From: Rotaria socialis | Lineage: Eukaryota | DNA length: 49,272 bases | Assembly (NCBI GenBank): GCA_905331485.1 | Contig: CAJNYT010000219.1 | Location: 1-49,272, forward strand | Direction: 5' to 3' | Shown here: in pieces, positions 33,101-39,127 of the stretch | Layout of the letters: each line of letters opens with the position of its first letter | How positions within the stretch are numbered: the first letter of the stretch is position 1 | Translations under genes and position numbers: made by a program | Notes under the pieces: model-generated | Seen by the model: the letters and a program-made list of their open reading frames with translations, nothing else | Database searches by the model: none | Told to the model about the DNA's origin: nothing

Positions 33101-36100
33101 ATGAAACCAACTACTACCTCTACTTCATTATTATCACCATTCAATGGCAAAAGCATTGTACTCGAACTTGGCCATGAAGTAGGTTTCAAAGCTAAGCAAG
33201 AATTGATCAATTATTTACGAGAACAGCAAGCACATATTTCGTATATTTTGACAGCCAGTGTATGTTCGCGTGTTATTTCATCAAACATGTGGTTGGAGTT
33301 ACCTTTCTTTTAGACTGATTATGTTCTAACTACGACTAATGTAGATAGCTACAAAATACGTCGTGCCAAACGGCTTGGCTTACCGGTAGTGAATGTTGAA
33401 TATGTACACAAATGCCGTTGTTTGCGACCTGGTCAAACACCTATTGATATTAGCAAATTTATTATCAAGTCAGCAGAAGATCAAGAGAACTTTATAAAAA
33501 CCGGCACTATTTCCATGCAAGGTATTAGAAGTTCTTGTAAAAATCATGTCAGACATCTTTGTTTATTAGAAACTCGAGTAAACGTGACTAAAGCCAATAG
33601 ATTCGATTTGACTAAAATCAAGCTGTGGAATTCGGACGATGTAAATTTGCCTCGTTTCGATGAGCTGGCACATTGTGAGCTTGGCAGATGGGCGATTTTC
33701 AAAGTAGATTTGTATTCATTTCTAGCTGTTATTCTCTTATATTTCTATTGTTCATAGCAGGAAACCAATGATAATTCAAGTGTATTTTTTGTTCTTGAAC
33801 TTCAAGTTATTCCCGAAGAGTACTATGATCGAACAACGAGTGATTATCAACTACGATTTCGATATGAAAAACAGACTATTACCGACGAAGTTTCACAACA
33901 CGATAAAAAAGTATTGGTACAATACGCATTCAGTGATGATCCAAACGAACAACAACAGTTGTTTGCGTCGTACTATTATCGTGTGGCTGCAATGCCACGT
34001 ATAACACGAATTAGTGAGATGTTACCTAACAAATTAGGATCAAAATTATTATTACGTGTATGCAAATGACATTGATAAAAGAATATAATTTAGTTTTTAC
34101 ACATAAAAGAAATTGTTTCTAGTCTTTATTTACACAACGTATCGACACACAAATACTCGATGAAAATGTATGTCAATTGATTGAATCGATTTGGCTAGAA
34201 TCGATTGGTGATCTGAATAAAATTTTGAGCATATCACCTGAATCGATTACTCTCAAAACAGTATGTGTACACTTTCATATTACTGTGTGTTCTAAACATC
34301 CAAATAGATCATTGAGGCCGAAGCTGCACTACTCGAACTCAAAGCGACCAACAATCCTGCTGCTGCACTTCGTTTCTATTCACTTATACCACATCGACCA
34401 GAGTACAATATTGATCTAATCAAGAATCATCGAGCGTTGATCGAAAAAATAGACCTATGTCAGGTATGTCAATCTTGTTTTAAATTGTTTTACTTGATCT
34501 TTTCCCCGTTCAGATGCTTCGAGATATGCATACAGTCAACGAACTGACCAATTGGAATGTTAAAGCACCAATCGAAGCTAAATATCGAGCATTGAAATGT
34601 CATATTGAAACAGTAGCGAGTTCAACATTCGACTTTAAGAATATTGCTAAGCTCATTCAGTCGTCGACTAATAGGCGAGAGAATTTAACATTCTATTTCA
34701 TAATGATTGTTTTTTGTTTATTAGTGGTGAAGAAATTTTAATTCACAACATATTCAGTGTGACTAGACAGACAGATGCACTCAATTTTCGTACAACACTC
34801 TCCCACCAATGGCAGCTGTTTCATGGATCGAAATATGTCAATTTTCTTGGGATTCTTTCACGGTAAAATACTCATTTCGTTCTCTAGACAACATTTATAT
34901 GGCGGTTGTGCGTACGTTTAGTGGTTTAGTCATGCCTAAAATTGTAGTGGACCAATTGGGCGTTGAACGTACTGACGTGGGTTGTCTCGGTTATGGGATA
35001 TATTTTTCAGATTCTGCTTCGACGTCTTTGAAATATACGACAGCAAGTAGAATACGGCCAGGTCGTCGTTTGTTATGCATTTGTCAAGTAGCACTTGGTG
35101 AATCAGCCAATTATTATTTGTTTTCGCCGACTCTCACCAAACCTCCTGATGGTTTTCATAGTACACATGGAGTCAAACAAACAGAAGAAAATCAATCAAA
35201 GTTCACTGTAAGTGAAATGCTAGAAGGATTTATTAATTATGATACTATTTCACAAATCTACTTTGCGTTCTATCGAAATAGGATAATGAATATGCCATCT
35301 ATCAAGTTGAACAACAACGTTTACTTTATGTTGTGGAAGTTTCATGGTCGCCGATTGATGCTCTCAGTATCACTTTAGAACGACTACCTATTGTTCACCA
35401 TCAAGAACATGCATTGAAATTAAGTGAGCACGGTAATGATAAGCTATGATTTCTTGTTGGAATAAACAATTGACTAAATTTTTCTCAAAATATTCTAGCT
35501 GAAGTTCCATTAACGATGGAGGATGAAATCATTGAAGTAGCCGAACAAGACTATGGTTTGATATGTTCATCATCGAGAGACCTTGTACCACTTAAATCAT
35601 TTCATATTCGTGCTCAAATTGTTGATGTTACAGTTGAAGTAATTATATCTACGTTTCGATTGAAGTAAAATACTAATTCCTCATGTTTCTATCTAATGAA
35701 AAGGTTGTTCTCTATCAAGTCTATCATAATACGAGTTCGATACCTATCGAAGCTAAGTATGTGTTTCCTCTTGATGAAAATTCAACTGTATGCGGTTTCG
35801 AAGCACATATTAACAATAAAGTTATCAAAGGTGTCGTTAAAGAGAAAGAACAAGCCAAACGCGAGTATAGAGAAGCAATTGAAAAGGGTCATGGCGCCTA
35901 TTTAATGCATCAAGAAGAAGCTCAAGTGTTCAGCGTTGCGGTTGGTAATTTGCCAGCGCATACTGAAGTTATCATCAAAATAATTTATGTTGCCGAATTA
36001 GAAATCGAAAATGATGACATTATTTTTCGCCTTCCAGCCAAAATGACTTCATGGCAATCGAAAAAAGCTGTCGAAACCAAAGATCAATCGATTTTACGAT

Positions 36101-39100
36101 CTATCGGTATTGTCGATGAAAAAGTTGAATTCAGTTTCAAAGCATCGATTCGAATGCCCTATAAAATAACGAAATTATTTTCCCCAACACATCATCTACG
36201 TCGGAAAGTAACCGATTGTATAGCTATGATTGAACTTGTTGATAATGTCTTAATTGATCAAGATTTTATTCTTTCGATCACACTCAACAGTCCTAATTTA
36301 CCTCGAATAGCAAATGAAACATTGCCATTGGATGGCAACAGTGAAACAACTGACACATCGAACAGCCATCAATCTCAAACATGTATGCTTACCTTTTATC
36401 CACGATTCGAAACATTGACGACTTCGAAAGAACAAGTTGAAATTATTTTCATTGTTGATCTATCAAATTCAATGGATGGCAGTCACGTACAGCAAGCTAA
36501 ACAGTTAGCTCATTTGTTTCTTACGAATTTGAAAGTTGAAGATGAGAATACATATTTTAATGTAATTACTTTTGGATCAGGTAATAAGATGATATTCTAC
36601 AGCGTTATTGCGCATTCAAAACACTATAACGCTTTCAAAATATCATTTGATTTTGATGAAATTTCGCACACAGAATCGTCTCATCAATATTTCGAGCAAG
36701 TTCGAGGATGACAATGATTCGCAGTGGGTTATACTAAAAAATGCCATTATTTCCTTCGTTTTCTCTATGGGAACATTGGCCTATCCAGGTTACGTGGACG
36801 CACTTTTTGGTCCTCTAGTACTATATTATGAAAATCAATTGAAATATTATAGTGAAGTATATTAAGTCATACACAAAGGTAAGCTATCTCAGCTTGGTTT
36901 CTGAGATTCAGAAACAGGCACCTAAATATTACAAGATTTTGCACAGTCACGAAGATCTAATGGATCGCCTTGACCCATGCGACGTGATATATACCGTTCG
37001 ATAGAGAATTTTACGGGCTAAAAAAATGATCAGTCTAGATAATTAGGCTGGGTCATCGTAATCAGCCGAGTTACTTTTTGAAGTACATATAGTATTAGGA
37101 TCTACATTTATTTTACTATTGAAATTGCAACTATTTAGATAACGATGAATGTTTTCCTATGTCAGCACCAACTACAAAAGAAAATCTCGATAAAGCCAAA
37201 CACTTTGTTCTAGTTAGTAGTTTATTTTTTGAATCTGATTTTTCTATTGAAATATCCGTTTTCATAAATTCTAGCATTCACGTGTCCATCGTGGTAATAC
37301 GGATCTATTTGCTGTCCTTCAACGTTATTCGTTATTACGATCGTCGTTATCGTCGAAATTTGGCCGTCAAATCGTTCTTTTATCCGATGGACATATTCAC
37401 GACCTCAATTCAATTCTGGCTCTACTCAAACATCGACCAACTATGCGTCGTGATCGTTTGTTTACATGCTCAATTGGTAATGTTGCAAACAAACATGTTT
37501 TGAAACAGTTAGCTAATGGAGCAAATGGAGGTGGTCTAACAATAGTATTCGATTCAAACTATCGATCGAAGTGGAAAACAAAAGTATTTAACATCCTCGA
37601 ACAGATTCGACAACCGTGTGTAACAAATATATCAATCGACTGGCATGGCTGTTTGAATAAAGAGCAAAAACTCAATATGCAAGCACCGAAAAAGATTCGA
37701 TCTTTGTTCAATGGAATGCGACTTACTGTTTATCGATTCATAGAAAATTGTCACAAGGCAACATTGGCGGCTACTATTGACGAACAAGAATTTGTTACGA
37801 CTGTATTTAGTAGTGCAATGACAACGACCAGAGGACGTATTTTACACTGTCTAACCACTCGAGCGATTATTGATGATTATGACAACGGGCTATTGGATGT
37901 CGACGAGAGCGAAAACGAATTGATCAAAGTTCAATACAAACGAGATCTCATCGATCTCAGCATCAAACATTCTGTTGTCAGTAAATACACTAGTTTTGTT
38001 GCCATCGAAGAACGTGATGTCAACACGGATATAAAAACTGTTCAACCAGGTTAGTAAAATAATAGCAGAAAAGCAAAAATTTATCTGTATGTTTCTTACA
38101 CTATGGATCAAAAATCTTACTAGCACCAAAATTGAAGTATCTACATCACTATTGAAACATGTACTCTCTGTTATAGGTGTTCGTTTGCTTGAAGTTATGC
38201 TGGAACGCGATGTTGACTTACTACCATGCATGGGATGGGATGGTGATGTTTCAAATTTGACTTCAATCAAACAGAAATTGGCCGATGCGCGTATTTCACT
38301 GGAATGTGCATCGATTCAGGGCAAAAAAGAAACAATTGTTGATATTGAAAAACTTTGTCAAAAAGTTTCCTATCGAGCAGGTGGTGATGCGAAATTTGCT
38401 ATCATGATGGCTATCATACGCACATATCGACATTCATTGAATGATTACGATAAAGCAGATGAACTAAAAGATAAAATGCAAAAGGGTATGCTAATTGATC
38501 TAGGACCAAAATCTACATATATCGAATTTAAAAAATGAATAGATATAATGACCGAAATGATTAGTGCAACCGTAGAAGAACGGCAAGCATTACAGCAACA
38601 ATGTCTAGCGAACAATTTAATAATCACAAATGACGAATTGTAAGTGAAAGAAAGGAAAGAAACATTTAAAAATTATTTCGTGTATCCTTTCTCTTGCAGC
38701 GGATCATTAATTAACTACGATGGTAAGAGGGAAACTCGGTCATTCTACTTCGGAAACGGTGGTAGAAAGCTTCGGTGAAGTGACATTAAATGGAACCACT
38801 TGGATGTTTTGAAAGAATTATATAGTCTAAATTTAAACCCCGACCTATACTGAGTAGAACATGTTAAGATCATCACAATGAATACCGCGTTGAAAACGTG
38901 TAGGTGGTTTTCAGAGAAATGTTTATATTTCATTTTCATAGATTTGATTCGTATGCTTGGAGCTGGTTCCAAGGATTTAACAACAGTTGAACAAATGGAT
39001 AAGGTAAGAAAGCTAGTTATACAATGATGATAAGCACCCGATTTTATTAATGAATTATTTATATCAACAGCAACATAAAACCTCTCAACAATACCTTAAA

Positions 39101-39127
39101 ACCAATTTCCAACTACAGATAACATGA
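33101..39127 (+). CDS. PARP4: PARP4 (vault PARP)-like gene: BRCT, PARP regulatory, PARP catalytic (H-Y-E), VIT, vWA and C-terminal region; about 19 exons
   Basis: Exon model: 33101-33259, 33314-33521, 33570-33703, 33761-34057, 34123-34260, 34308-34463, 34514-34674, 34725-34862, 34922-35207, 35282-35432, 35499-35638, 35704-36580, 37139-37212, 37275-38049, 38177-38485, 38543-38639, 38700-38722, 38942-39003. These sum to 4185 nt = 1395 codons in one frame. A tentative last exon is 39071-39127.

Motifs:
- BRCT: GKSIVLELG...TDYVLTT...RRAKRLGLPVVNVEYV
- PRD: FYSLIPH
- Catalytic: QLFHGS, GYGIYFSD, DNEYAIY
- VIT: VVLYQVYHNTSSIPIEAKYVFPLDENSTVCGFEAHI
- vWA MIDAS: IFIVDLSNSMDG, LLSDGH. Confidence 0.85.

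Follow-up and report, generated by a model that had tools for sequence, protein, structure and literature searches.

Vertebrate PARP4, the vault-type ADP-ribosyltransferase, is composed of a BRCT domain, a helical subdomain and an ADP-ribosyltransferase (ART) domain with an H-Y-E triad, a VIT domain, a vWA domain with a DxSxS motif, a long linker and a C-terminal MVP-interaction (MINT) domain. In the human protein, the MINT domain (residues 1562-1724) is responsible for docking inside the vault shell (PMC12280208). The oyster (Magallana/Crassostrea gigas) RefSeq PARP4 isoform X4 shares the BRCT-PARP-VIT-vWA core and also carries, close to its C-terminal end, a region resembling the substrate-binding domain (SBD) of Hsp70 (Pfam HSP70 8e-28, residues 2039-2179). 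In the bdelloid rotifer Adineta vaga, several MVP genes and many PARP genes are reported to be induced after radiation and desiccation (PMC10809525). Here we describe a PARP4-like gene of another bdelloid, Rotaria socialis, located on contig CAJNYT010000219.1 of assembly GCA_905331485.1. The window that was analysed is the whole stretch of 49,272 nucleotides from this contig.

The predicted rotifer protein resembles vertebrate PARP4 in the order of the parts listed above, with a BRCT domain that is putative, and has an overall identity of about 34%. It differs in two of the three named MVP-contact residues and in a calmodulin-like module and an Hsp70-SBD-like domain between the vWA and the MINT-like domain, both of which are missing from vertebrate PARP4; the oyster protein lacks the calmodulin-like module. 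Our preferred model, to which we assign a probability of roughly 0.8, is a single PARP4-like (vault-type) ADP-ribosyltransferase gene of 36 exons on the forward strand, from 33101 to 46216, which would encode 2149 amino acids from a transcript spliced from 39003 to 39969 and onward. The region 33101-39127, which the initial annotation had taken for a complete gene, is the 5' two-thirds of it: the open frame runs for 18 exons and 7 kb further, to 46216. As a member of a known family the gene is ordinary, and the in-frame TGA and the frame break noticed in it are explained by ordinary short spliceosomal introns.

Results

The top matches of the protein hand-assembled from 33101-39127 were bdelloid rotifer proteins, with up to 99% identity, and metazoan PARP4 ranked after them at 33-36% identity. 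Pfam, homology search and the alignment with human PARP4 agreed with each other, and with the initial annotation, on the PARP4-like identity and the order of the domains. The gene has already been deposited, since protein P0128 (GenBank CAF3338465.1, UniProt A0A817V6K3, "Poly [ADP-ribose] polymerase" of Rotaria socialis, 2178 aa) maps exactly to this contig by spliced alignment, over 33101-46213 plus the TAA stop, in 34 exons. Together with two further deposited R. socialis relatives, CAF4460822.1 and CAM4912656.1, it starts at 33101, stops at 46214-46216 and shares nearly all exons with the preferred model. As comparison loci we used L001, a second (allelic) R. socialis contig with 99.5% identity over the locus, L002 of R. 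magnacalcarata, L003 of Rotaria sp. Silwood1 and L005 of Adineta steineri, and we also compared R. sordida and A. vaga. The 36-exon structure transferred from L001 was open across all codons in the window. It was seen directly that the frame is open, that the domains match, that splice sites are orthologous and that exon lengths and phases are conserved; splicing itself is inferred. The window is AT-rich (34% G+C) with very short introns, and the median intron of the gene has 58 nt.

PARP4-like genes are numerous in bdelloids, and each Rotaria species has three or more divergent groups of them (about 99%, 78% and 57-65% identity to this gene). Proteins labelled R. magnacalcarata fell into two classes, P0002/L002 with 92-93% and P0005/P0122 with 98-99% identity to the R. 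socialis gene. These could be divergent haplotypes, shared polymorphism or a sample mix-up.

The N-terminal part of the protein is encoded by exon 1 (33101-33259, 159 nt), which has the ATG start and the beginning of the BRCT-like N-terminus, and by exons 2 (33314-33521, 208 nt), 3 (33570-33703, 134 nt), 4 (33761-34057, 297 nt) and 5 (34123-34260, 138 nt). Intron 2 (33522-33569, 48 nt) is a stop-free multiple of three and was kept as coding in P0128. Exon 4 is preceded by a tandem acceptor, TAG/CAG at 33755-33760, which exists only in the window haplotype; L001 and R. magnacalcarata (L002) have TAACAG. Because these two keep the CAG alone, 33761 is the conserved start of the exon, and the alternative start at 33758 would give one extra Gln.

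Pfam detected VIT (6.9e-37), PARP (3.6e-25), VWA_3 (5.7e-14) and VWA (1.3e-12). The H-Y-E catalytic, VIT and vWA (DxSxS) domains of the initial annotation were thus recovered, and BRCT, with 18.6 bits (curated cut-off 21.3), and PARP_reg, with 21.7 bits (cut-off 26.8), both stayed under the Pfam cut-offs. A BRCT call for the N-terminus appears reasonable from related sequences: residues 14-87 align with residues 5-81 of oyster PARP4 (E=3e-11), where Pfam places a BRCT domain, and in the paralog P0016 the domain exceeds the cut-off with 26.7 bits. The N-terminal 299 aa had no match in the PDB.

The helical (regulatory) subdomain lies in exon 6 (34308-34463, 156 nt) and is followed by exon 7 (34514-34674, 161 nt). 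For the catalytic region, human PARP4 was the best PDB match (E=3.5e-52), with PARP2 next (6.7e-22). The triad residues are found as LFHGS in exon 8 (34725-34862, 138 nt), GIYFSD in exon 9 (34922-35207, 286 nt) and DNEYAIY in exon 10 (35282-35432, 151 nt), aligned with the H, Y and E of human PARP4. Exon 10 has another in-phase donor at 35424; its length of 151 nt is nonetheless kept in three other species. Enzymatic activity as an ADP-ribosyltransferase is suggested by the intact triad together with the similarity to human PARP4. After exon 11 (35499-35638, 140 nt), exon 12 (35704-36580, 877 nt) carries the VIT domain and the start of the vWA domain including its MIDAS motif DxSxS, here DLSNS within IVDLSNSMDG. 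Exon 13 (37139-37212, 74 nt), of equal length in every species compared, leads to exon 14 (37275-38049, 775 nt) with the remainder of the vWA domain and the region behind it. A 13-nt exon within the 127-nt intron 14 was considered and ruled out by hand as out of phase.

The frame break at 34675 is best explained by a 50-nt GC-AG intron, intron 7 (34675-34724, tag/GCGAGA...TTATTAG/tgg), in front of which exon 7 terminates with ..LIQSSTN plus AG. At this position the window and L001 both read AATAG/GCGAGA; the homologous base in R. magnacalcarata gives AATAG/GTGAGA and R. sordida has tag/GTGAGA. Four other species (A. steineri, A. vaga, R. magnacalcarata and R. sordida) share an exon 7 of 161 nt, a length that it reaches in the window only with the GC donor. 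The residues QSST[DN]S are kept in about 35 bdelloid cluster representatives and are absent only from R. socialis-type models that avoid the GC donor, and the alignment with human PARP4 is gap-free across the exon 7/8 junction. For scoring donor flanks, we derived a position matrix from the remaining 34 donors, with positions +1 and +2 left out. The GC site scored +2.5 bits, the 34 other donors -0.95 to 6.6 bits. Two cryptic GT donors, 34660 (giving LIHGEE) and 34663 (giving LIQSGEE), scored -8.9 and -10.9 bits. Both are in phase as well, and the GC donor is therefore not the only in-phase solution, as had been claimed; the GC-AG intron itself was backed by the orthologues and the scores.

The cryptic donors are the ones chosen by the deposited models, where they delete conserved residues: P0001 and P0121 lose SSTN, and P0128 and P0122 replace QSSTNS by H. 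All public R. socialis-type models are thus probably wrong at this junction, GC donors not being accepted by the predictors, and the GC-AG call would be a small correct improvement over all of them. GC-AG introns are a normal minority class. Intron 7 is like other U2-type members of this class in its GC at +1/+2, its consensus-like flanks, its normal AG acceptor and its normal length (50 nt), and the sole difference from its orthologues is a T-to-C change. We consider a GC-AG intron at 34675 well supported by these comparisons. In the R. socialis lineage, position +2 of the intron would have changed from T to C and so produced the GC donor, the rest of the site (AG/GCGAGA) being near consensus.

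The in-frame TGA at 38536-38538, which terminates ORF 38089-38538, lies, as proposed in the initial annotation, inside a 57-nt GT-AG intron (intron 15, 38486-38542, agg/GTATGC...AATAG/ata) between exon 15 (38177-38485, 309 nt) and exon 16 (38543-38639, 97 nt). Coding restarts with D-IMTEMISATVEERQALQQQC, and the intron likewise has 57 nt in R. magnacalcarata. The predicted 23-nt microexon, exon 17 (38700-38722), was also upheld in the model: it has equal length in R. magnacalcarata (L002 13571-13593) and in A. steineri (L005 4730-4752), a species of a different bdelloid family, and is present in all deposited models.

The large GT-AG intron 12 (36581-37138) had been suspected to hide an insertion, and its length of 558 nt, compared with the median of 58 nt, is indeed explained by about 500 extra nucleotides. 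Homologues of this intron are short in R. sordida (56 nt), A. steineri (51 nt) and A. vaga (47 nt) and long in R. magnacalcarata (508 nt) and Silwood1 (about 650 nt). When the 56-nt R. sordida intron is aligned, the extra sequence (about 36610-37110) sits after ..ACAGCGTTATT. A whole-window scan gave no Rfam match for it, and no second copy was found in the DNA compared. The repeat search yielded only weak inverted repeats (71-77% complementary) and no defensible target-site duplication. The sequence of about 500 nt is an old insertion, gained in the lineage of R. socialis, R. magnacalcarata and Silwood1.

Exon 18 (38942-39003, 62 nt) ends with ..TTVEQMDK in phase 0. Exons 1-18 (33101-39003) give exactly 1395 codons with the GC donor, the number obtained previously by hand assembly. 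In Silwood1, coding goes on after ..EK (IRKLCTM, a 63-nt intron, then LGEVPDFTGELFMPTTANLSPIPEKQFPTTDNMKIT) and is spliced to ADQ afterwards. The Silwood1 sequence AAGATAAGA (L003 11655-11870) corresponds to AAG/GTAAGA in R. socialis and R. magnacalcarata (window 38995-39140). AAG/GTAAGA is a new strong donor that cut off this part of the exon, and about 40 ancestral codons behind it have decayed. The relic makes up the first ~135 nt of intron 18 (39004-39968, 965 nt); in R. socialis it has lost 60 nt and acquired an old-frame TAA, and in R. magnacalcarata 1 nt has been inserted. The stretch 39071-39127, which the initial annotation proposed as the last exon, lies within this relic, in another frame than the homologous Silwood1 coding sequence. 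Its acceptor scored -2.7 bits, under all 34 other acceptors of the gene; the acceptor at 39969 has 4.1 bits and is the best AG in intron 18. From these features, we regard 39071-39127 as a chance ORF in a decayed segment and not as the last exon. Its acceptor may occasionally be used.

The calmodulin-like module (39969-41675) consists of exons 19-22. Exon 19 (39969-40065, 97 nt) begins with ADQLTEEQ.. and contains EF-hand 1, exon 20 (40117-40194, 78 nt) the first half of EF-hand 2, exon 21 (41402-41543, 142 nt) its second half together with EF-hand 3, and exon 22 (41596-41675, 80 nt) ends with ..IREADIDG. The loops of EF-hands 1-3 are intact; the fourth loop breaks off behind DIDG, at a conserved donor, and the module is without its own start or stop codon. 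We therefore rejected a free-standing calmodulin, with four EF-hands and about 149 aa, in favor of a calmodulin-derived module. A continuation of the fourth EF-hand into exon 23 was rejected as well, that exon being homologous to the linker of calmodulin-less paralogs. Intron 19 (40066-40116, 51 nt) is the second stop-free multiple of three that P0128 keeps as coding. Exon 20 has a canonical donor, atg/GTAAGT, which P0128 uses; P0001 reads 84 nt past it, into or next to a foldback element. This inverted-repeat insertion (40244-41187, inverted arms of about 200 nt) occupies part of intron 20 (1207 nt), and a 220-nt palindrome (42505-42724) lies in intron 22 (1371 nt).

The calmodulin-like module is present in the Rotaria species and in A. 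steineri, where the four exon lengths of 97, 78, 142 and 80 nt are identical. Since they total 397 nt, which is not divisible by three, skipping them would break the downstream frame, and the four exons are obligatory. A Mytilus edulis model has EF-hands at a similar position but also a Snf7 domain, and may be a mis-fusion. Between Rotaria and Adineta (L005), the calmodulin-like exons had a synonymous divergence of only 0.19; that of exons 1-18 was 0.69 and that of the C-terminal domains about 0.5. The low value could stem from strong constraint on codons or from gene conversion with a canonical calmodulin gene.

From exon 23 (43047-43373, 327 nt) on follows a poorly conserved linker, homologous to that of the calmodulin-less paralogs. 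Behind exons 24 (43421-43477, 57 nt), 25 (43964-44140, 177 nt), 26 (44198-44319, 122 nt) and 27 (44368-44459, 92 nt), exons 28-30 (44579-44825, 44880-45048 and 45107-45178) encode the Hsp70-SBD-like region, a predicted beta-sandwich. It matched Pfam HSP70 with 6.4e-26, at profile positions 376-519 of 599 only (the beta part of the SBD), and the SBD of BiP/Hsc70 with E=3e-26. An Hsp70 chaperone was considered and dismissed: there is no nucleotide-binding domain, and the PDB matches cover the SBD only. An Hsp70-SBD-like region without nucleotide-binding domain also stands between the vWA and the MINT-like domain in P0048 (oyster), P0016 and P0024.

The helical C-terminus is encoded by exons 31-36 (45228-45262, 45321-45381, 45439-45530, 45594-45702, 45753-45880 and 46037-46213, followed by the TAA stop). 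BLASTP aligned this domain (45.2-46.2 kb) to residues 1587-1716 of mammalian PARP4 (E=2e-7), and the sole PDB match of the single sequence was human PARP4 1575-1641 (E=0.005). A profile of 8 bdelloid C-termini matched human PARP4 1574-1698 with E=4.3e-6, and PF26156 (PARP4_MVP-ID) is precomputed on relatives. The C-terminus is, by these matches, homologous to the MINT domain of PARP4, and it is found in the long model only.

The Hsp70-like and C-terminal domains occur in every full-length bdelloid relative, including calmodulin-less paralogs with compact genes. In A. vaga, the gene spans 7.3 kb with 27 exons, and no intron is longer than 156 nt. The A. steineri gene has 34 exons in 8.7 kb, with the calmodulin-like exons inside and flanking introns of 65 and 262 nt. 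In exon-wise nucleotide alignments with four other species, dN/dS was about 0.2 in exons 1-18; it was 0.2-0.34 in the calmodulin-like exons, 0.26-0.47 in the Hsp70-like region and 0.44-0.64 in the C-terminus, and no stops were present in the downstream exons of any species compared.

Elsewhere in the window, a second gene of ADP-ribosyltransferase type lies on the minus strand at 7576-12551, with a PARP catalytic match in ORF 7576-9954 and WWE in ORF 11877-12551. An ORF with TPR repeats occupies 25833-27707 on the plus strand; in R. magnacalcarata, the counterpart of this ORF additionally has a domain resembling ADP-ribosylating toxins. The minus strand further carries a glycosyltransferase-like ORF (EryCIII-like/UDPGT, 28479-29555), adenylosuccinate synthetase (4280-5362) and a tRNA (20127-20198), the sole Rfam hit in the whole-window scan.

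Discussion

The end of the gene is the point where other readings of the locus have to be weighed. The main mRNA could be spliced from 39003 to 39071 and stop at TGA 39125-39127, giving a 1414-aa BRCT-PARP-VIT-vWA protein without the calmodulin-like, Hsp70-like and MINT-like parts. The required intron, 39004-39070, is GT-AG, in phase and, at 67 nt, near the local norm, and in a genome of short introns so near an acceptor could serve at least sometimes. As main product, we nevertheless consider this protein most unlikely: the acceptor scores far below the one at 39969, the 19 codons behind it are out of the Silwood1 frame in a segment that has suffered a deletion and an old-frame stop, about 750 downstream codons are open and constrained, and the defining domain of a vault PARP would be missing from the product. 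Alternatively, the PARP4-like gene could stop near 39 kb and be followed, on the same strand, by a separate calmodulin-like and/or Hsp70-SBD/MINT gene. The blocks are indeed separated by introns of 965, 1207 and 1371 nt, P0275 starts within the calmodulin-like block and P0234 ends directly after it. The block moreover starts exactly at what we take to be the start of exon 2 of animal calmodulin genes. We still hold fused neighbours to be very unlikely. There is no in-frame ATG upstream of ADQLTEEQ in the block and no conserved ATG/GT exon upstream of it; ATG/GTAAAC at 39295, tried as calmodulin first exon, was rejected for lack of conservation in R. magnacalcarata and Silwood1. The block is stop-less, and its fourth EF-hand ends at a conserved donor. 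In A. steineri, it lies between PARP4 exons of one 8.7-kb gene, the upstream and downstream parts are contiguous in the compact genes of calmodulin-less relatives, and P0277 connects exon 18, the calmodulin-like block and the linker. We also sought, in large protein searches, protein fragments from transcripts spanning the exon 18/19 and 22/23 junctions; these returned only multi-calmodulin proteins or gene predictions.

A third reading is that this copy is decaying in the R. socialis lineage, as an expressed or unexpressed pseudogene. The GC donor, the decayed coding segment after exon 18, the foldback insertions and the degenerate fourth EF-hand may all be seen as hints in this direction, as may the dN/dS of the C-terminus, which is above that of exons 1-18. 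However, the frame of 2149 codons is intact over 36 exons in both R. socialis contigs, dN/dS is well under 1 in every folded domain, the catalytic triad and the MIDAS motif are preserved and GC-AG introns are, as said, nothing abnormal. Decay thus appears extremely improbable to us.

Some observations do weigh against our preferred model of one long gene. The linker has a dN/dS >1, and four downstream introns are very long, with 486-1371 nt compared with the median of 58. The latter can be attributed to insertions, namely the foldback element and the palindrome. Homologous introns are short elsewhere: the counterpart of intron 20 measures only 101 nt in A. steineri, and 217-218 nt in R. sordida and Silwood1. 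Gene predictions divide the locus differently (P0275, P0277, P0234), and all models used for comparison are gene predictions themselves. Nor is the module universal, as the A. vaga relative examined is without any calmodulin-like exons. The structure predicted for the C-terminus from the 8-sequence alignment was all-helical with a mean pLDDT of 54.8, and Foldseek against the PDB gave nothing below E=1. Of the human MVP-contact residues named in PMC12280208, S1614 is conserved, K1618 is replaced by N and R1689 by Q.

A model ending at 39127 lacks the MINT-like domain that defines a vault PARP. More generally, a hand-built "complete" gene can end 7 kb early if a chance ORF follows a genuine donor.

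Conclusions

The MINT-like domain and the MVP genes of A. vaga suggest that the protein may dock to vaults; these MVP genes are reported as expressed and stress-induced, which makes vaults plausible in bdelloids. Only the calmodulin-like and Hsp70-like domains embedded in the gene are mildly unusual, and they lie beyond the region annotated initially. It is conceivable, although we are doubtful, that a single polypeptide carries a calcium sensor derived from calmodulin and a peptide-binding domain of Hsp70 type between its enzyme core and its vault-docking domain, and that ADP-ribosylation in vaults, or recruitment to them, would be calcium-regulated or client-directed. If they are translated together, the Hsp70-like part, shared by bdelloids and oyster, and the calmodulin-like part, found in one bdelloid lineage, hint at a regulated vault-PARP function.

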